64,000 nt of DNA. Origin: an uncultured Holophagales bacterium (GTDB taxonomy: Bacteria; Acidobacteriota; Thermoanaerobaculia; Multivoradales; UBA5704). Numbering within the stretch: the first letter of the stretch is position 1; each line of letters starts with the position of its first letter. The notes under the pieces are model-generated. The model was given only the letters and a program-made list of their open reading frames with translations, did no database searches and was not told where the DNA came from. Location: the NCBI GenBank assembly GCA_963842525.1, contig CAWJGT010000011.1:160001-224000 (forward strand), given 5' to 3'. The translations under genes were made by a program, and so were the position numbers. Positions 11,694 through 53,092 of the stretch are shown here, in pieces.

Positions 11694-13125
11694 ATGCCGA
11701 CTTACGAGGAACTCCTTCAAGAGAACTCTGAGCTTCGCCAAGACAACGGTGAGCTTCGCCAGCGGGTGGAGGAGCAGGAGCGCCAGATTGCGCACCTGAA
11801 GCGCCGAATCGTCGATCTGGAGAAACTTGTCGAGGAGCTACGGCGCCGGGGCAAACGCCAGGCTGCCCCCTTCTCGAAGGGAGATCCGAGCGAGGATCCC
11901 AAGTCTCCAGGGCGCAAAGCCGGGGATCAATATGGTCAGCAAGCGACTCGAGCTGTGCCCGATCACGTCGACGAAACCATCGTGGTGGAGTGCCCGCTGT
12001 ATTGTGAGCACTGTGGGGGTCAGGTCATTCCGCAGGGCGAAGCTCGCCAGTATCAGACCGATCTGCCGCCGATTCGGCCGGTGACGACGGAGTTCATCCT
12101 CCATTATGGGAAGTGCTCGGCATGTGGCCGGGAAGCTGTGGGGCGTCACCCGCGCCAGACTTCCCAGGCGTTCCGGGTCGGCAACGTGCAACTCGGTCCA
12201 AACGTGTTGGGGCTCGCCGCCTGGCTCAACAAGGTCGGAGGCTTGAGCTACGGCAAGATCGCCGCGTTGCTGAAGGAGCTGGCTGGACTGTCTGTGTCGC
12301 GCTCGGCCCTGTGCCGCGCGCTGCTTCGCATGAGTAAGAAGCTGGAGCCCTTGTACGAGGAGCTGAAGGCGAAGATCCGGAGCTCTCCTGTGGTGTACCC
12401 GGACGAGACGGGCTGGCGGGAGGGGGGCTATAGCGTGTGGTTGTGGGTGTTCACCAATCGCAGCGAGACGGTCTACAGCATCCAGCCGGGTCGTGGCTAT
12501 GCCGAGGCCTCTGAGGTCCTGGGGGAGGGCTTTGTCGGCGTGCTGGTGGCTGATGGTTGGGCTCCCTATCAGAAATTTGAAGAAGCGACTCATCAGACCT
12601 GTCTGGCGCATCTGTTGCGCCGTTGCGAGGAGCTGCTGGAGAAGGCGACAGGGGGTGCGGTGCGCTTTCCTCGGGCGGTGAAAGAGATCCTGCAGGCCGC
12701 CTTGGAGGCGCGAGATCAGCGGGACGCGGGCAAGCTCAGCGGCGAGGCGCTGGAGAAGGTCAAGCAGGACTTGGAGGCTCCAGATGGAAAGGCGTCTGTC
12801 GGGGCAGTTCACGAACCCCGACAACCAGCGTCTGGCTCAGCATTTGATACGTCACCAGGAGCAGCTGTTTGTCTTCCTGGAACGCACGGATGTGGAGGCG
12901 ACCAATTGGCCGGCCGAACAAGGGATTCGCCCGGCGGTCATCAACCGCAAGACATCTGGGGGAAATCGGACGGCCGAGGGGTCCCAGGCGCAAGCGGTCT
13001 TGATGAGTGCCCTGCGCACATTTCAGCAACACCAAGTCGGGACACTCGAGATCTTGCCCCAGCTTCTGCGCAGCCCCCAGCTACCGAAGCTTGAGGCAAT
13101 ACTTCCTGCGTCACAGCCACCGTAA
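11694..13125 (+). CDS. IS66 transposase (frameshift near 12778)
   Basis: Coiled-coil N-terminus, Cys zinc finger, DETGW, ADG..Y, QTCLAHLLR and TNWPAEQGIRPAV motifs. Confidence 0.9.
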
Positions 13126-13255: not shown

Positions 13256-13935
13256 ATTTGAAGAAGCGACTCATCAGACCTGTCTGGCGCATCTGTTGCG
13301 CCGTTGCGAGGAGCTGCTGGAGAAGGCGACAGGGGGTGCGGTGCGCTTTCCTCGGGCGGTGAAAGAGATCCTGCAGGCCGCCTTGGAGGCGCGAGATCAG
13401 CGGGACGCGGGCAAGCTCAGCGGCGAGGCGCTGGAGAAGGTCAAGCAGGACTTGGAGCTTCCAGATGGAAAGGCGTCTGTCGGGGCAGTTCACGAACCCC
13501 GACAACCAGCGTCTGGCTCAGCATTTGATACGTCACCAGGAGCAGCTGTTTGTCTTCCTGGAACGCACGGATGTGGAGGCGACCAATTGGCCGGCCGAAC
13601 AAGGGATTCGCCCGGCGGTCATCAACCGCAAGACATCTGGGGGAAATCGGACGGCCGAGGGGTCCCAGGCGCAAGCGGTCTTGATGAGTGCCCTGCGCAC
13701 ATTTCAGCAACACCAAGTCGGGACACTCGAGATCTTGCCCCAGCTTCTGCGCAGCCCCCAGCTACCGAAGCTTGAGGCAATACTTCCTGCGTCACAGCCA
13801 CCGTAACAGTTCTCGCCACGAGTTATCCGTGGCTCCAGGTCGGTAGCCGCTCGCCCTCGTCAGGTCGCCTGGCCAGCGCGGACGTGTGTCCAGGGAAAAC
13901 CTTCCCCAAAAGTGCCGCTGACGGTAAACAGATAC
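13256..13935 (+). repeat. Direct duplicate of 12575-13254 (3' part of IS66)
   Basis: Identical apart from the indel at the GAGCTC site. Confidence 0.9.
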
Positions 13936-18035: not shown

Positions 18036-18398
18036 GCGAACAAGATCGACCGGCAGGTACTCCGGGTCCGTCGTGTCATCCTGAGCGTAGCGAAGGATCT
18101 GGGCGGCGGGAAACGTCCCAGAATCCAAGCCGGAGCGGACTCGCGGCCTCCCTTTCAGACAGGGAGAGGCTCGCTCCTCGTGGAGCCCGCCGCGAAGTCG
18201 CCGTAGTCGGAATCGAGGCTGCGCGAGTGAACCTGTTGTCATCTACGGCCGAGCTGTGCCGCCAGGGACTGCACACGCCAAGTCGTTGACTGCCAAGCAG
18301 ATTCCACCGAGATCGAAGCTCTGCTCATGGACCCGGGACAACGTGCCACGGTCCATGGATCATGCGTCAGGGACCGCACTTCATGTGCCATGGACCGC

Positions 18399-18692
18399 AG
18401 TCAACGTGCCGTTTCCTTTAGTCAATGCTTGAGGCACCCGGGTCCGTGGCCCGTTTCCTACAGTCAATGCTTGAAGGCCCCGGGTCCGCGTGCCGTTTCC
18501 TTTAGTCCATGCTACAGGGCCCCGGGTCCGCGTGGCGTTTCCTGTAGTCAATGCTTCAAGGCCCCGGGTCCGCGCCCCGTTTCCTGTAGTCAATGCTTGA
18601 GGACCCCGGGTCCGCGTGCCGTTTCCTACAGTCAATGCTTGAAGGACCGCGGTCCGCGTGACCCTTTATCCAGTCCTCACCTGAGGGACCGC
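18399..18692. repeat. Tandem repeat, seven 42-bp units (2 x 21), with degenerate units back to about 18330
   Basis: Units start at 18399, 18441, 18483, 18525, 18567, 18609 and 18651. Consensus GGTCCGCGTGCCGTTTCCTNYAGTCAATGCTTGARGGCCCCG. Confidence 0.9.
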
Positions 18693-19076
18693 GGTCCATG
18701 AGGCCTGCCGCGCGGACGACGTCGCTCGAAGTGCACGCGACGTGACGACGGGCGGAGGCAGTGCCGCTCTTCGAGCGGCCGGCGTCTTATACAGCCCTGT
18801 CGCGAGGGACTTCAGACGAACCGCGCGAGCTCAAGGGCAAGACTTGAGCCGCGTCCTAAAATGCCTTCATACCCGATTCCGTGACGTAGATCGAGTCCCT
18901 GCACCGGCCACGGTCTGCCCTCTCTGACGCAGAAGAATTTTTGGTCTGCCTGAAACGCCAAGTGCCTATAGGGCCAAGTCCCACCTCGCGAGACGCCTTC
19001 GCTCGTCATCACGACGTAATTGCGACTCTCAAGGCACCAGCCCGGCCAGAATGCCTATTCACACAAGCCTATGGTC

Positions 19077-19931: not shown

Positions 19932-21967
19932 GTGCGCCAAGACAAGCTTGGCGCTTCTTGCAGGGTGTAAGTCCCTGCCGGGTAAGGTCTAACCAACCAC
20001 CCGTACCGAGTGTTGCAGATCTGGCGGAGGAGAGTCGACGTCGACGAACCGAACAAGAGGTCTGGAGCGTACACAGGGAACCATGTAGGCCGTAAGGGAG
20101 ACCGCACCTCCCCCAGGTCTGGTACAGCCCCGAAAGCGCCGATTACAGATGCAGGCGGCGATCGTTTACGTTTGCGAGAAGCCCACGCGAAGGAATCGCT
20201 TTGGTGAGATTCTGGAAGCCTGCCGGGGTCATCAGGACATGGCATGCATGGAGAGGAGCGTCGAAGAACTTGGGAGACCCCATTGATTCCTGCACTCTTA
20301 GAGAGGCAATCTGCAAGGCGCGAGGCTGGCTAGGCACAGAAGGGGAAACCCGGACCCAGAGAGAATGCCTGGCGCCTAAACGGAGGATCGACGAGAGATG
20401 ACAGGTAGGCGACCTGAACCGAAAAGGCAAGGGAGACTGAAGATCATTGGGGAGTCGGATCAGCCCATAGTACTCCGAGAACGGGAGAGCCGTTCACATG
20501 GGGAAGGAGCTGACGGGAACCCGTAGCCCGCAAAGGAAACATGACCCAGATGCGACAGGCTGGACAACTCATGCCAACCTCCCTGCGGGGAATAGCGAAC
20601 AAGGCAAGCTCTGACAAGAACCACCGTTTCGGCAATCTCTTTGGTCTGCTGACCATGACGTTCCTTCTGTCCTGCTGGGAGCGAGTCAACAAGAAAGCTG
20701 CCAGCGGCGTGGATCGGGTTTCGGCCCGGGCTTACGCGAAGGATCTGGCGGGAAACGTAAGAGACCTTTGGGAGCGTGTGAAGCGGGGTAGTTACCGGGC
20801 GAAGCTGGTCCGGCGACGTCACATTCCGAAGGAAGGGAGTACAGCGACTCGGCCACTGGGGATCCCGGCGGTGGAGGACAAGCTGCTCCAGATCGCAGTC
20901 TCCCGCATTCTCAATGCCATCTACGAGCCGATCTTTCTGCCGTGCAGTTGGGCATACAGGCTCGGCCGTAATGCGCGGGAAGCAGTGCGGACGCTGAAAC
21001 AGGAGCTTCAGTTTGGTTGCTACGGTTACGTTGTGGAGATTGACATCAAGGGGTTCTTCGACCGGATCGACCATGAGAAGCTCATGGAGATGCTCGAGCT
21101 GAGAATCAACGATCGGCCGTTCCTGCGGCTGATCTGGAAATGGCTCAAGGCGGGAGTATTGGAAGAGGGTGGGAAGGTGATCCACCCGGACACGGGCTGT
21201 CCGCAAGGTAGTGGGATATCACCCGTGCTTGCCAATATCTACCTTCACTACGTTCTGGACCTTTGGTTCACGGAGGTGGTGAAGCCCCGGTGTAAAGCGC
21301 GGGCCTTCATGTGCCGGTTTGCGGACGATGTGGTGTTCGCCTTCCAGTGGCATGAGGAGGCCGAGCGGTTCTTCCGGGTCCTGCCGAAACGGCTGGCGAA
21401 GTACGGGTTGGAGCTTTCGGCGGAGAAGAGCCGGATGGTGCGGTTCAGCCGGTTCCAACTGGGCAAGAGCTCGGAGAGGTTCGACTTCCTCGGGTTCGAG
21501 TTCCGCTGGGTGAAGGACCACAAGGGAGTGGCCCGGGTGACGTGCCGGACATCGCGCAAGCGGCTTCGGGCGTCGTTGACCAGGGTGACCGAGTGGATCA
21601 AGGCCGAGCGGCACCTGCCGGTACGCCAGTTGGTGGGGGCGTTGAACGCGAGGCTTCGTGGGCACTATAATTACTACGGGGTGATCGGCAACTACGCAAG
21701 CCTATGCTCATACTTCAATCAAGCGAAACGGCTGCTGATGAAGTGGTTGGGGAGGCGGAGTCAAAAGAGCCGGATGAGCTGGGTGAAGTTCAGCGCCCTG
21801 CTGAAGCGATTTCCACTGGAGGAACCCTGGATCGCGGAGAGTCGGCATCGGCAGATGGTTCTTGTCTGAGTTGCTGAGTGCGGAAGCGAGGGTAACCGAA
21901 GAGCCCGGTGCGGAAAAACCGCACGCCGGGATCTGTGCGGGGGGCGCTTCGGCGTCCCTACCGCGAC
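19932..21967 (+). mobile_element. Group II intron (IIB/class E-like by IEP and D5 appearance)
   Basis: 5' GTGCG, D5 GAGCCCGGTGCGGAAAAACCGCACGCCGGGATC, D6 ending CCCTACCGCGAC. Removal restores GTTRRRY. Confidence 0.9.
20541..21869 (+). CDS. ltrA: Group II intron reverse transcriptase/maturase, no endonuclease domain
   Basis: RPLGIP, DIKGFFD, GCPQGSGISP, RFADD, FDFLGF and maturase X (LRGHYNYY). Alternative start at 20571. Confidence 0.95.
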   Translation: MTQMRQAGQLMPTSLRGIANKASSDKNHRFGNLFGLLTMTFLLSCWERVNKKAASGVDRVSARAYAKDLAGNVRDLWERVKRGSYRAKLVRRRHIPKEGSTATRPLGIPAVEDKLLQIAVSRILNAIYEPIFLPCSWAYRLGRNAREAVRTLKQELQFGCYGYVVEIDIKGFFDRIDHEKLMEMLELRINDRPFLRLIWKWLKAGVLEEGGKVIHPDTGCPQGSGISPVLANIYLHYVLDLWFTEVVKPRCKARAFMCRFADDVVFAFQWHEEAERFFRVLPKRLAKYGLELSAEKSRMVRFSRFQLGKSSERFDFLGFEFRWVKDHKGVARVTCRTSRKRLRASLTRVTEWIKAERHLPVRQLVGALNARLRGHYNYYGVIGNYASLCSYFNQAKRLLMKWLGRRSQKSRMSWVKFSALLKRFPLEEPWIAESRHRQMVLV

Positions 21968-23408: not shown

Positions 23409-23563
23409 AGCCGAGCCCGGGCTGAGGCCGCAGGCCGATGCCCTGGGTCAACAGGGCCCCACAGCCATGCGGCCTGAAAGGCCGCGAGAACCTATCTCTT
23501 GCGGCCTTTCAGGCCGCATCGGTGGGCTACCTTTCTACCCAGGGCATCGGCCTTCGGCCTCAG
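23409..23563. repeat. REP/BIME element (CCCAGGGCATCGGCC.CGGCCTCAGCCCTGGG and GGCCTGAAAGGCC hairpins) interrupted by IS110
   Basis: Homologous to 42821-43032. An empty target copy lies at 23413-23448 on the minus strand. Confidence 0.8.
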
Positions 23564-23647
23564 ATGCTATGCAGGGCGGGGGATGCAAAAGCGGGTCGCC
23601 GGTTGTATGTTTCGGGGGAACTTTAGCGGTTAGAAAGGAGAACCCCG

Positions 23648-24784
23648 ATGAACCAGACAACCCGCATTGCAGAGTCTACGCGAACGGAGGCGGTGTTACA
23701 TATGGCCCTGGAGCTCGGCGCCAGCGAGTGGAAGCTGGGGTTTGGTGTAGAGGCTGGACGGAGGGCAAGTCAGCGGACAGTTGCAGCCGGGGACCTTGCC
23801 GGGCTGATGCTGGAGATCGCGCGGGCCAAACATCGCCTTGGCGTGCCGGAGTCGGCTCGGGTGGTGAGTTGCTACGAGGCCGGACGGGATGGATTCTGGC
23901 TCCACCGGTTCCTGCTGTCGGAGGGAGTGGAAAACGTTGTCATGGACTCCTCGAGCATCGAGGTGAATCGGCGGCATCGCCGGGCCAAGACGGATGGGGT
24001 GGACGTGGAGAAGTTGCTGTCGTTGTTGATCCGTTACGAGCGCGGGGAGAAGAAGGTGTTCGGGGTAGCGCACGCGCCGACCCCCGAGCAGGAGGACGAG
24101 CGTCACCTGGCTCGGGAGCTTGAGTCTCTGAAGCAGGAGCGCACGGCCCACACCAATCGGATCAAGGGCCTGCTGGCCAGCGTGGGGGCTCGGGGGGTGA
24201 AAGTCGGCAAGGGCTTTCTGCAGCAGCTGGATCAGGCGAGGCAGTGGAACGGCGAGAGGCTGCTGGCGAGCTTGCGGGAGCGTTTGAGGCGAGAGGGCGA
24301 GCGTCTGGCTGTGCTGGAGAGTCAGATTGCCGAGCTCGAGCGGTTTCGCCGGACGGCCAGCGTGGAAGCGACGGAGAAGGTGCAGCGGCTGCAAGAGCTC
24401 AAGGGGATCGGAGGCAACAGTGGTTGGCTGTTCGTGGTGGAGTTCTTCGGCTGGCGGCAGTTCCGCAACCGCCGTGAGGTGGCCGGTTTGGCGGGTCTGA
24501 CGCCGATGCCTTATCAGAGCGGTGACACGGTCAACCACGAACAAGGGATCAGCAAGGCGGGGAATCGTCGGGTCCGGGCGATGGCGATCGAGATCGCTTG
24601 GGGCTGGTTGCGCTTCCAACCGCAGAGTCGCCTGAGCTTGTGGTTTCAGGAGCGTTATGGTCCTGGGAGCCGCCGATCTCGGCGGGTGGGGATCGTGGCC
24701 CTCGCCCGCAAGCTGCTGATCGCGCTGTGGCGCTATCTGGACTACGGTGTGATTCCTGAGGGTGCTGAGCTGAAGACGAAGTAA
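23648..24784 (+). CDS. IS110 DEDD recombinase/transposase
   Basis: CYEAG, AKTD..D, GLTPMPYQSG, GISKAGN and ALARKLL motifs. RBS AAGGAG. Confidence 0.95.
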   Translation: MNQTTRIAESTRTEAVLHMALELGASEWKLGFGVEAGRRASQRTVAAGDLAGLMLEIARAKHRLGVPESARVVSCYEAGRDGFWLHRFLLSEGVENVVMDSSSIEVNRRHRRAKTDGVDVEKLLSLLIRYERGEKKVFGVAHAPTPEQEDERHLARELESLKQERTAHTNRIKGLLASVGARGVKVGKGFLQQLDQARQWNGERLLASLRERLRREGERLAVLESQIAELERFRRTASVEATEKVQRLQELKGIGGNSGWLFVVEFFGWRQFRNRREVAGLAGLTPMPYQSGDTVNHEQGISKAGNRRVRAMAIEIAWGWLRFQPQSRLSLWFQERYGPGSRRSRRVGIVALARKLLIALWRYLDYGVIPEGAELKTK

Positions 24785-24797
24785 TCTGGGAGGAAAA

Positions 24798-24982
24798 AGC
24801 TCGGAGAGAAACGACTGGTGGAGCGTGCCCGGCCCAGGGCTTGGTTCGGCTTCCGAACCGTTCTCTCAGATGGGGCCGCTCCGAGAGCTTGCCTGAGTCG
24901 CTCGACAGCGCATGCTGCATTTGGTGTCCTGACCCAAAGAGGTCAGCACGGATAGAAGCTGGAAAGGACGACTCCCCAGGTC
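24798..24982 (+). ncRNA. Predicted bridge/seekRNA with target-binding and donor-binding loops
   Basis: Two stem-internal loop-hairpin modules. The loops carry GCCCAGGGCT and CTCAG (target) and GCATTT and ATAGAAG (circle junction). Confidence 0.75.
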
Positions 24983-25242
24983 CCTGCACACTCCGGGCAA
25001 GCGCCAGACGGACTGAGAACCAAGAAGCGAGAAAACCGGTGACAGGAGGGGGGGCCAGGAAAGGGAAAACGACGAACCACCACCCCGAGACGCTTGACAC
25101 CGGTGGCCCACATAGAAGCCCTGGGCTCCGTTCTGCCGGCCCGTTGGGCCGGGTGGAGACGAAATCTGCGCGCCGCACGAGGATTCTCAGGGGTAGTAGA
25201 TCAGGGCTGTACGGTGGCAGGCTCCGACTGAAGGCCGGCACT

Positions 25243-41264: not shown

Positions 41265-42820
41265 CTTCTATGTGGGCCACCGGTGTCAAGCGTCTCGGGG
41301 TGGTGGTTCGTCGTTTTCCCTTTCCTGGCCCCCCCTCCTGTCACCGGTTTTCTCGCTTCTTGGTTCTCAGTCCGTCTGGCGCTTGCCCGGAGTGTGCAGG
41401 GACCTGGGGAGTCGTCCTTTCCAGCTTCTATCCGTGCTGACCTCTTTGGGTCAGGACACCAAATGCAGCATGCGCTGTCGAGCGACTCAGGCAAGCTCTC
41501 GGAGCGGCCCCATCTGAGAGAACGGTTCGGAAGCCGAACCAAGCCCTGGGCCGGGCACGCTCCACCAGTCGTTTCTCTCCGAGCTTTTTCCTCCCAGATT
41601 ACTTCGTCTTCAGCTCAGCACCCTCAGGAATCACACCGTAGTCCAGATAGCGCCACAGCGCGATCAGCAGCTTGCGGGCGAGGGCCACGATCCCCACCCG
41701 CCGAGATCGGCGGCTCCCAGGACCATAACGCTCCTGAAACCACAAGCTCAGGCGACTCTGCGGTTGGAAGCGCAACCAGCCCCAAGCGATCTCGATCGCC
41801 ATCGCCCGGACCCGACGATTCCCCGCCTTGCTGATCCCTTGTTCGTGGTTGACCGTGTCACCGCTCTGATAAGGCATCGGCGTCAGACCCGCCAAACCGG
41901 CCACCTCACGGCGGTTGCGGAACTGCCGCCAGCCGAAGAACTCCACCACGAACAGCCAACCACTGTTGCCTCCGATCCCCTTGAGCTCTTGCAGCCGCTG
42001 CACCTTCTCCGTCGCTTCCACGCTGGCCGTCCGGCGAAACCGCTCGAGCTCGGCAATCTGACTCTCCAGCACAGCCAGACGCTCGCCCTCTCGCCTCAAA
42101 CGCTCCCGCAAGCTCGCCAGCAGCCTCTCGCCGTTCCACTGCCTCGCCTGATCCAGCTGCTGCAGAAAGCCCTTGCCGACTTTCACCCCCCGAGCCCCCA
42201 CGCTGGCCAGCAGGCCCTTGATCCGATTGGTGTGGGCCGTGCGCTCCTGCTTCAGAGACTCAAGCTCCCGAGCCAGGTGACGCTCGTCCTCCTGCTCGGG
42301 GGTCGGCGCGTGCGCTACCCCGAACACCTTCTTCTCCCCGCGCTCGTAACGGATCAACAACGACAGCAACTTCTCCACGTCCACCCCATCCGTCTTGGCC
42401 CGGCGATGCCGCCGATTCACCTCGATGCTCGAGGAGTCCATGACAACGTTTTCCACTCCCTCCGACAGCAGGAACCGGTGGAGCCAGAATCCATCCCGTC
42501 CGGCCTCGTAGCAACTCACCACCCGAGCCGACTCCGGCACGCCAAGGCGATGTTTGGCCCGCGCGATCTCCAGCATCAGCCCGGCAAGGTCACCCGGCTG
42601 CAACTGTCCGCTGACTTGCCCTCCGTCCAGCCTCTACACCAAACCCCAGCTTCCACTCGCTGGCGCCGAGCTCCAGGGCCATATGTAACACCGCCTCCGT
42701 TCGCGTAGACTCTGCAATGCGGGTTGTCTGGTTCATCGGGGTTCTCCTTTCTAACCGCTAAAGTTCCCCCGAAACATACAACCGGCGACCCGCTTTTGCA
42801 TCCCCCGCCCTGCATAGCAT
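41265..42820 (-). mobile_element. IS110/IS1111 element, copy 2 (inverted; appears identical to copy 1 apart from one extra base)
   Basis: CT cores at 41265-66 and 42821-22, same REP target position as copy 1. Confidence 0.92.
41599..42736 (-). CDS. IS110 transposase (apparent +1 frameshift near 42592)
   Basis: Same protein as 23648..24784. Confidence 0.9.
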
Positions 42821-43032
42821 CTGAGGCCGAAGGCCGATGCCCTGGGCAGAGAGGTGATCAAACCCCGCGGCCTGAAAGGCCCGCGAGAGAGATTTCTGCC
42901 GGAGTCGGCTCAGCGCTCGGTTTAGCCAGAGGTCTCGCGGCCTTTCAGGCCGCCTGAACGTGGGGCCTGTTGACCCAGGGCATCGGCCTTCGGCTAGCCC
43001 TGGGCTGGAGTCTCCCGGCCCGTTGGGCCGGC
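42821..43032. repeat. REP/BIME element of the IS110 target family
   Basis: GGCCTGAAAGGCC / GGCCTTTCAGGCC hairpins. An unoccupied variant target CCCAGGGCATCGGCCTTCGGCTAGCCCTGGGCT lies at 42975-43006. Confidence 0.8.
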
Positions 43033-46648: not shown

Positions 46649-46748
46649 GGAAGCGCTCGGGGGCTGGTGCCTTCTGCGGTCTTCAAAACCGTTGTCCCGT
46701 GCCGGTTGCGGCATGGGGGGTGGGTTCGATTCCCATGCGCTTCCGCCA
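46649..46748 (+). tRNA. selC: tRNA-Sec (UCA)
   Basis: 8-bp acceptor stem GGAAGCGC/GCGCTTCC, anticodon loop CTTCAAA, long variable arm, GTTCGATTC, GCCA end. Confidence 0.95.
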
Positions 46749-47287: not shown

Positions 47288-47832
47288 GTGCCCTGCTCCG
47301 GGGGTCTTCGGGAGGCTGTAGGCGGGGAGTGACACGGGATTGCCACAAGAGCATGGAACCTTCCCGGGTCAAACCTCTAAGCCAGCCAAGCAGATATAGG
47401 ACGGAAGGCATGGGAACCATCCGGTCTTCAAAACCATTGCCCGGTGCCGGTTGCGGCGTCGGGGGGTGGGTTCGATTCCATGCGCTTCCGCCATTCGGTG
47501 CAAGCCCACTTCAGCGTCAGGCCACCGTTATCCCTCGAATCTGCACTCCGCGTGACACGGCAGTGACACAGGGAAGACCGCAGGAGGCATCAGCCCGGGG
47601 AAACTTCTGCTTCTCTCGTCTTCAGGCGTACGGCGGGAGGTTTGGGGATGGGCGTAGAATGCGACGCGAGCTCGGTCATGAGTCGTCCGGGTAGGCCTCG
47701 GCGGGGCCGCAATCCTTCGTCGGGGCTGCGTTAGGGAACGCCATGATGCCATACTTTCATCTGTAAAGCCGAGTACTTGCTTGACACTCTTTCGCTCTGA
47801 CCGAGCGAGACCTCCTGACGGCCCGGGACTTT

Positions 47833-52928: not shown

Positions 52929-52985
52929 ATGAAGATCAGGACCAACGTCAAGGCCGGTACCGAGAACATCGTCTGGGGGACGTAG
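52929..52985 (+). CDS. 18-aa micropeptide MKIRTNVKAGTENIVWGT (putative RiPP/signal precursor)
   Basis: Perfect SD AAAGGAGGTGAT; tandem paralogue at 53036. Confidence 0.75.
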   Translation: MKIRTNVKAGTENIVWGT

Positions 52986-53035: not shown

Positions 53036-53092
53036 ATGAAAGTCAGGACCAACGTCAAGGCTGGTGACGAGAACATCGTCTGGAGCGTGTAG
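53036..53092 (+). CDS. 18-aa micropeptide MKVRTNVKAGDENIVWSV
   Basis: Same SD and spacing, same length, synonymous changes versus copy 1. Confidence 0.75.
   Translation: MKVRTNVKAGDENIVWSV

Follow-up and report, generated by a model that had tools for sequence, protein, structure and literature searches.

The DNA analyzed here (the window) comprises 64,000 nucleotides of contig CAWJGT010000011.1 from an uncultured Holophagales bacterium, and it carries two copies, A and B, of a mobile element that is very probably an IS110-family insertion sequence (IS) with an IS1111-like layout, whose 3′ noncoding region encodes a bispecific bridge/seekRNA. Copy A is made up of an 86-nt left noncoding end, a single open reading frame (ORF) of 378 amino acids (23648-24784), and a 334-nt right noncoding end (Table 1). 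The evidence in hand comprises sequence matches, covariation of the guides with the flanks and ends, covariation of the RNA structure, the family and fold of the protein, and a multicopy target, and the published mechanism agrees with this reading.

The element, its recombinase, and its copies

The boundaries of copy A are set by five near-identical copies with unrelated outer flanks and by 13 empty genomic sites of sequence CTCAGCCCTGGGC. Copy B retains an intact RNA domain (41376-41568), its longest remaining ORF being one of 334 amino acids from an internal start codon. Both copies lie between ...CGGCCTC-AG and AG-CCCTGGGC..., and the shared insertion site CGGCCTC-AG, which an earlier note on this DNA had proposed from the letters alone, is confirmed at both loci. 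Since one and the same repeat, which resembles a repetitive extragenic palindrome (REP), is interrupted by both copies, their flanks are alike for about 26 nt on the left and about 38 nt on the right.

In the 9.95-Mb genome, this subfamily (S1) is represented by five full copies, about 100% identical and four of them with an intact ORF, in addition to one truncated copy and a 58-nt right-end remnant. Two sister subfamilies are also present, S2 with two copies at 90% and S3 with four copies at 77% nucleotide identity (in the genome, G000, S2 and S3 copies are found at C23:156822-158399 and C23:167719-169296, and others on C34, C19, and C9; loci L006, L007, and L009-L012). All 11 full-length copies of S1-S3 have AG at both junctions, with a single AG in the empty sites. 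Insertion is site specific, with a shared core dinucleotide and without terminal inverted repeats, as in the IS110 family. Regarding the ends, the subterminal inverted repeat of copy A has a GGGC extension beyond a 1-nt indel, and when one mismatch is tolerated, a subterminal run of 6 matches is the most common one in a set of 54 distinct end pairs (31/54), only four pairs reaching 9-10. The terminal extensions are 5 bp on the left (AGATG, core included) and, on the right, 3 bp with the core or 1 bp without it.

The protein scores 183 bits with the NCBIfam model NF033542 ("IS110 family RNA-guided transposase"; cutoff, 140) and 63.1 bits with Pfam Transposase_20 (3.1e-17; cutoff, 21.3); with Pfam DEDD_Tnp_IS110, the model for an N-terminal RuvC-like domain, it reaches 22.3 bits, under the cutoff of 29. 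An AlphaFold2 model based on 78 homologues, with a mean predicted local distance difference test of 85.4, matches the IS621 recombinase (8wt9_A) along its full length, with about 365 columns superposed, an E value of 1.1e-12, and template modeling scores of 0.56/0.65. The candidate catalytic residues are E22, E77, D116, D119, and S291, whose conservation was measured on 78-79 homologues. Among 79 sequences, E77, D116, D119, and S291 are invariant (S291 in 79/79), and residue 22 (window 23711-23713), presumably the first catalytic acid, is E in 75/79 and D in 3/79 members. If this last assignment is right, the family would be E-E-D-D instead of D-E-D-D. Moreover, the segment GLTPMPYQSG (residues 283-292) aligns with the same motif in IS621 and ISCro4, pointing to a C-terminal domain with the catalytic serine in a G--P----SG motif. 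Between subfamilies, the protein identity is 95% for S1 and S2, with S3 being 78% identical to S1 and 76% to S2.

Table 1. Coordinates of the element, its gene, its predicted RNA with candidate guides, and the surrounding repeats in the window
Feature	Position	Strand	Remarks
REP-like repeat, left part	23503-23561	+	Ends ...CCCAGGGCATCGGCCTTCGGCCTC; common to copy B and 12 empty genomic copies
Insertion sequence copy A, 1557 bp	23562-25118	+	AG core counted at both ends (23562-23563, 25117-25118)
Subterminal inverted repeat, left copy CTATG	23567-23571	+	Partner CATAG at 25111-25115; 5 bp perfect
Recombinase gene, 378 amino acids, IS110 family	23648-24784	+	Profile matches, AlphaFold2 model, homologue conservation
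Bridge/seekRNA domain, about 193 nt	24815-25007	+	CUGG (24815-24818) pairs with CCAG (25004-25007); covariance model R1
Target stem-loop, outer stem	24820-24830 with 24873-24882		
First target guide GCCCAGGGCU (DNA letters GCCCAGGGCT)	24832-24841	+	5′ side of target loop
Target stem-loop, inner hairpin	24843-24859		
Second target guide CUCAG	24865-24869	+	Identical to left flank CTC plus core AG
AU behind second target guide	24870-24871	+	Same as first two left-end bases past core; putative handshake position
Second closing helix	24887-24893 with 24996-25002		Encloses three hairpins
Hairpin 1 inside second closing helix	24899-24910		
Left donor guide GCAU	24917-24920	+	Complementary to left-end ATGC; followed by UU (to 24922)
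Hairpin 2 (middle) inside second closing helix	24924-24949		
Right donor guide AUAGAAG	24952-24958	+	Identical to right end plus core
Base C behind right donor guide	24959	+	Same as first base of right target flank; putative handshake position
Hairpin 3 inside second closing helix	24966-24983		
TTGACA, candidate -35 box	25094-25099	+	Right end; GATGCT (23563-23568) as -10 box, 18-nt spacer across circle junction
REP-like repeat, right part	25119-25156	+	CCCTGGGCTCC...CCGGCCCGTTGGGCCGG
Empty REP beside copy A	23413-23449	-	CTCAG-CCCGGGCT, without the T; right side departs from first guide (CCCTGGGC)
Insertion sequence copy B	41265-42822	-	Same as copy A except a 1-base insertion (T at 42592) giving an in-frame TGA (42592-42590)
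Empty REP beside copy B	42971-43010	+	GGCT-AG-CCCTGGGC; left side departs from second guide (CCTC-AG)

Target guides and insertion sites

The three subfamilies have common ends (start AGATGCTATGCAGGGCG, finish CCACATAGAAG), and each of them lies in a different sequence. The flanks of S1 are CTC-AG-CCCTGGGC, its first guide being GCCCAGGGCT and its second guide CTCAG. For S2, the flanks are CTC-AG-CTCCGCCC, with GGGCGGAGCT as the first guide (RNA GGGCGGAGCU) and CTCAG as the second, and for S3 they are TAA-AG-CCTGGCGC, with GCGCCAGGCT (RNA GCGCCAGGCU) and TAAAG, respectively. These guides occupy equal positions of the RNA, and the surrounding scaffold and the entire second loop are unchanged, 1-2 mismatches being observed at the far end of the first guide in one S3 copy and one S1 copy. 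In the copies of the window, the first guide is complementary at 10/10 positions to AG plus CCCTGGGC, which is the core and the right flank in the recombinase-sense strand; this match through the core had been pointed out in the earlier note. Also, the four guide strings listed there are present, GCCCAGGGCT at 24832-24841, CTCAG at 24865-24869, GCATTT at 24917-24922, and ATAGAAG at 24952-24958.

At least 551 relatives were confirmed in one pattern-limited scan, which covered species-representative genomes, and the best 80 of them, 51-83% identical and belonging to Chloroflexota, Acidobacteriota, Planctomycetota, Gemmatimonadota, and other phyla, were fetched. Allowing two mismatches, both RNA anchors are found in 72/80 of the fetched loci, and the anchor AGATGGGG is found in most homologous RNAs, being exact in most. 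The set used for covariation comprised 66 rows with both ends identifiable (55 fetched loci and the 11 copies of this genome), corresponding to 53 distinct target loops. In this set, the second guide, read in fixed register, agrees with the left flank with frequencies of 0.98, 0.94, 0.91, 0.74, and 0.74 for positions -1 to -5 relative to the core (0.44 to 0.25 when permuted), and beyond these five core-proximal positions the identity is at background level. For the first guide, the best 9-mer has a mean of 6.87 matches with the right flank, compared with a permuted mean of 4.78 and a highest value of 5.34 in 1000 permutations, and the identity at the six core-proximal positions is 0.81-0.92. 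A T able to pair with the second core base is present in 16/53 of the first target guides, including those of the clade of this genome. Moreover, the same guide columns emerge from an unbiased scan in which each well-filled column of the alignment is compared with each position of the flanks.

A lack of covariation between guides and targets in homologues had been set beforehand as the result that could refute the earlier note; the analysis was run, and since the guides of S1-S3 and those of the 53 distinct RNAs change in step with their targets, its proposal withstands this test. The pattern is that expected for a bridge/seekRNA, in which two target guides of one loop are complementary to opposite strands, overlap the core, and covary with the target. 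The 10-mer GCCCAGGGCT is found at five sites in the window, where shuffles predict 0.36; each of the two RNAs and each of the two right junctions contains one, and the fifth is in an empty REP. These counts are not the decisive control, which is covariation.

The targets are multicopy repeats. The S1 13-mer CTCAGCCCTGGGC has 13 uninterrupted genomic occurrences against 1.65 expected, and 12/13 of these empty sites belong to a repeat with three hairpins and about 120 nt, the left arm of which is present in about 47 copies (up to 2 mismatches). The 13-mer of S3 occurs 19 times in the genome, always in another REP-like repeat, and that of S2 occurs five times, three of them in a third repeat; these 19 and three occurrences are perfect empty sites. 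The description of the target as a multicopy REP safe harbor is then a fair one, given the roughly 47-copy repeat and its 12 perfect empty targets, and the two empty REPs next to copies A and B do deviate from the guides, as was also claimed, each on a different side (Table 1). Five perfect empty REP targets are found within about 4 kb (G000, C34:527617-531622) around the occupied copy at C34:528531-530087. A REP is also said to be the target of ISPa11.

The predicted RNA, its donor guides, and the proposed circle junction

According to the model, the bridge/seekRNA domain would consist of a target-binding stem-loop, with both target guides in its internal loop, and a donor-binding four-helix junction, where the donor guides lie on the two strands that connect the middle hairpin (24924-24949) with the other two hairpins. 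The structure was drawn by hand on the four closest sequences and converted into the covariance model R1, from whose matches (81 in 83 sources) the alignment was obtained. In the RNA alignment (72 distinct rows), 94.7% of the cells are paired versus 76.0% in shuffled rows, 39/45 base pairs have compensatory changes on both sides, and the pairing falls to 33-48% when the partners are slid by 1-3 columns. The loop stems named in the earlier note exist and are backed by this covariation. When 45 RNAs are aligned plainly with MAFFT, RNAalifold gives just 19 pairs because the helices are out of register in that alignment, and no family of Rfam 15 matches the RNA (gathering scores in the window; E values up to 1 in 24760-25130). 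Two homologous loci contain a second R1 match each (L024:88-277 and L034:2693-2880 (-)), which suggests neighboring or nested elements.

Regarding the donor guides, the left end varies at two positions across the family (AG-AT-NN), and the RNA 4-mer that precedes a conserved GGUG matches it exactly in 25/49 distinct end/guide pairs, compared with a permuted mean of 6.9 and a maximum of 14 in 2000 permutations. The two letters behind this 4-mer are CT, the complement of the core, in only 4/49 pairs. From the string GCATTT, which had been proposed as the guide for the left end with a wobble pairing at the core, the GCAT part does track the left end, but the core pairing does not hold in the family. 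Across the fetched set, the right end CATAGAAG and the RNA string GGATAGAAG hardly vary, so that this set is consistent with their pairing but uninformative as to its covariation. In the present element, the right donor guide matches the right end plus core at 7/7 positions, in agreement with the circle junction CATAGA-AG-ATGC predicted earlier. A distant element of the ISRel9 family, a single case read by eye, has the right end CATGTGAG and a matching AUGUGAG at the corresponding position of the RNA. The RNA would then contain a second pair of guides that match the joined ends of the element, as expected for a bridge/seekRNA.

Furthermore, the unbiased scan relates column 24959, behind the right donor guide, to the first base of the right flank (0.90 versus 0.32 permuted; z 10.3), and both bases are equal in 59/61 distinct cases, with all four bases represented. 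This base is part of the target and not of the element; it is retained in the empty sites, and the first target guide covers it as well. Similarly, the two invariant bases with which the left end begins recur as the AU behind the second target guide. Both would be handshake positions, matching the noncognate DNA, a feature absent from the earlier note. Passages of PMC11208158 describe, for IS621, bases beside the 3′ guides that pair with the other DNA partner after top-strand exchange, termed handshake guides. As for handshake covariation in IS1111-type elements, the literature passages found concern IS621 and IS110 orthologues, which is no proof of its absence.

These results bear on a different explanation, in which only the first stem-loop is a guide, as a target-only seekRNA, the second region is a scaffold, and the protein uses the subterminal repeats to recognize the ends, so that loop 2 would match the circle junction incidentally or be conserved for another reason. 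Such an organization has a precedent in the short 82-nt seekRNA of ISEc11, which by itself supported movement (42% in a reporter assay) according to a passage of PMC11187229, and it would also account for a left donor guide that is inexact in many pairs and mostly lacks the core letters and for a right pair too invariant to be informative. Nonetheless, the exact left-end matches are far above both the permuted mean and maximum, the subterminal repeat has just 5 bp, and the single ISRel9-like element has a different right end together with a matching RNA string. Also, the agreement between the base behind the right donor guide and the first target base is sensible only if the donor loop meets DNA during strand exchange. 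Guidance by the target loop alone is thereby improbable, and a bispecific RNA is preferred.

With respect to the expression of the element, an exact TTGACA is located 18-19 nt before the core end in 50/55 distinct junctions, one more having it at 22 nt (51/55), and the junction hexamers are GATACT (16), GATAAT (14), GATGCT (11), and GATCCT (9), with a spacer of 17-18 nt. This suggests a promoter that would exist only once the ends are joined in the circle; passages of PMC11208160 and PMC11187229 describe promoters of this kind for IS621 and ISEc11. One terminator-like site is found in the integrated element, inside the ORF, which is no more than in shuffles.

A bispecific bridge/seekRNA would operate as follows. 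In the target loop, the 10-nt first guide would pair with the core and right flank on one DNA strand and the 5-nt second guide with the left flank and core on the other, whereas in the donor region GCAU would pair with the left end and AUAGAAG with the right end and core. One or two bases behind each 3′ guide would match the other DNA partner, as in the handshake of IS621, and the DEDD-type/serine recombinase would exchange strands at the AG (CT) core, so that the element would enter the REP-like repeat without duplication beyond the shared core. In the excised circle, the TTGACA of the right end would be joined to the GATGCT of the left end, creating a promoter whose transcript would run through the recombinase gene into the RNA. 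From the sequence, we infer that the RNA is expressed and processed, that the protein binds it, that the circle is formed, and that the element is active at present.

It could be argued that the RNA and its guides are real but that the copies are immobile, their identity being a product of segmental duplication or assembly. The premature stop in copy B, the truncated copy, and the 58-nt remnant are in line with decay, and neither a circle joint nor a polymorphic empty site is seen in the best-covering run (assembled contigs), in addition to the lack of a promoter found in the integrated copy. However, 4/5 of the full copies combine the 378-amino-acid ORF with an intact RNA, the 12 perfect empty targets left are as expected with unsaturated sites, and the outer flanks differ past the REP, which indicates that the copies are separate insertions and not duplicated segments. 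A dead element is then very improbable, and recent activity of a functional one, as proposed in the earlier note, would fit the near identity of the five copies and the intact ORF in four of them. Joints that skip the element were also considered as signs of excision (23559 to 25115 in run X19 and 23561 to 25130 in run X3) and were rejected, since their sides have just 22-23 letters and 90% likeness and come from other soil samples; their simplest explanation is empty REP-like sites that belong to other organisms. Finally, that the internal 10-mer is a REP piece picked up by chance or capture, and no guide at all, deserves almost no credence, for although it is part of the REP palindrome and recurs in the window, this reading failed the covariation analysis: the internal loop that holds it is bounded by covarying helices, and the equivalent place in S2, S3, and dozens of homologues is occupied by other strings, each matching its own flank.

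Several observations weigh against the proposed bispecific RNA-guided element. Concerning the protein, the first acidic candidate is E and not D, and its equivalence to D11 of IS621 is deduced from its position in the model. Concerning the RNA, the permutation controls ignore the kinship among loci, and the pair counts come from an alignment fitted to the R1 structure, a procedure that favors this structure. When the whole 334-nt noncoding region is folded alone, the result is no better than shuffles (z -0.22), so the RNA structure is visible only in the family alignment. The left donor guide is exact in about half of the cases, and the covariation support for the right donor pairing comes only from one distant ISRel9-like element, read by eye. 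Lastly, a search for sigma-70-like promoters in the integrated element gave 0 promoter-like sites, and no circle joint is seen in four of 22 sequencing runs (X1, X3, X19, and X20; all assembled contigs, in which gaps in the coverage of the element carry no meaning).

Relation to known systems and meaning

The bridge-RNA mechanism was published in 2024 (Durrant et al., PMC11208160; Hiraizumi et al., PMC11208158; Siddiquee et al., PMC11187229), and the comparisons made here refer to the passages of these papers that describe the systems. As in IS621, the present RNA would have a target loop and a donor region, each with a longer 5′ guide and a shorter 3′ guide that pair with opposite strands and overlap a CT/AG core (PMC11208160, PMC11208158), and with handshake bases behind the 3′ guides (PMC11208158). 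Moreover, both elements have REP as a target, the predicted recombinase fold is alike along its full length, and a promoter would form across the circle junction of the present element too. When the element is turned to the CT core, the order of IS621 is obtained, with the long 5′ guide for the left target and the short 3′ guide for the right target, and likewise for the donor. On the other hand, the present RNA lies downstream of the recombinase gene, whereas that of IS621 lies in the left end, and in the recombinase sense the present core is AG and the order of the strand matches is reversed. The tested model places the donor guides in a four-helix junction, in contrast with the internal loop of one stem-loop in IS621, and the pairing of the left donor guide (45/49) and of most first target guides (37/53) of the family does not extend over the whole core. 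Also, the protein has 378 amino acids versus 326, its sequence similarity to that of IS621 is detectable only in the C-terminal domain, and position 22 is E where D is expected.

Compared with the IS1111 group (ISEc11, ISPa11, and ISKpn4; PMC11187229), the element has the same long noncoding region downstream (86 nt upstream versus 334 nt downstream) and the same order in the RNA, with the top-strand match 5′ of the bottom-strand match, which is the criterion given in a passage of PMC11187229. The GL-P----SG motif, the insertion without real duplication, the natural reprogramming among close relatives, and the use of repeats as a target are likewise shared with that group. For IS1111 elements, the share with a bridge RNA predicted by Durrant et al. 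is 93.0% (passages of PMC11208160). However, the perfect subterminal repeat has 5 bp instead of the 11-13 bp (PMC11187229) or 7-17 bp (PMC11208160) described, the terminal extensions (5 on the left; 3 or 1 on the right) fall outside the rule of 7 (or 6) on the left and 3 on the right, and the protein is longer than the 330-350 amino acids of the group. An IS4321-family gene, searched with tblastn, has just 26.7% identity over 66% of the present protein. The IS1111-type label of the earlier note holds then for the layout and the guide order, but it does not for the subterminal repeat, the terminal extensions, and the protein length, and for these reasons the element is assigned here to a broadly defined IS110 family and described as IS1111-like in its layout.

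Among named relatives, the ISRel9 family of Rhizobium plasmids comes nearest, with 41.7% identity over 96% of the protein. It also has a downstream noncoding region and, by eye, the same arrangement of guide strings matching its own left flank, left end, and right end, the last being different from that of the present element. Model R1 gives no match at E values up to 1 with the RNA beside an ISRel9-family gene, and the name ISRel9 was not found in the literature searched.

Other features of the window lie away from the element. A group II intron is found at 19968-21967 (+), with Rfam matches to group-II-D1D4-6 at 19968-20239 (96.2 bits) and to Intron_gpII, domain V/VI, at 21899-21967 (40.4 bits). 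A tRNA-Sec gene lies at 46649-46744 (+; Rfam, 71 bits), and a partial second copy of its 3′ part (83% identical) is located 745 nt downstream, at 47422-47496. Two tandem ORFs of 18 amino acids, MKIRTNVKAGTENIVWGT and MKVRTNVKAGDENIVWSV, at 52929-52985 and 53036-53092 (+), have the appearance of a small-peptide gene pair; each of them follows GGAAAGGAGGTGATCCC within an 85-nt direct repeat of 86% identity. There is also a tandem array at 18347-18704 with a 42-nt period and at least six overlapping register copies, and a 300-nt direct repeat at 12575-12874 and 13256-13555, whose copies are 99% identical and 681 nt apart.

The element adds a clear new example, with some details particular to its family, to the mechanism described in 2024; it is no new kind of system, and the known mechanism is unchanged by the present findings. 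It is a rather doubtful possibility that the clade is an architectural class of bridge recombinase apart from the studied IS110 (IS621) and the canonical IS1111 elements. The traits of such a class may be an RNA that is a product of the 3′ untranslated region, cotranscribed with the recombinase from the junction promoter; donor guides in a four-helix junction, the left one skipping the core; and a single handshake base that links the donor loop to the target. Another such trait may be that the -10 box of the junction promoter is formed by the very four bases read by the left donor guide, and thus the complex bound to the circle could shut off its own promoter.

A genome sequence is shown here to be enough for reading the guide code of bridge/seekRNA elements, and the three sister elements constitute an unusually clean test of it because proteins that are 76-95% identical, with identical ends, are each re-aimed at a different short repeat by changes confined to the guides. 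Moreover, the handshake rule established for IS621 would be extended to an element with an IS1111-like layout. Finally, the relatives point to a large uncharacterized soil clade of high GC content with a well-defined RNA model, which could widen the set of programmable recombinases.

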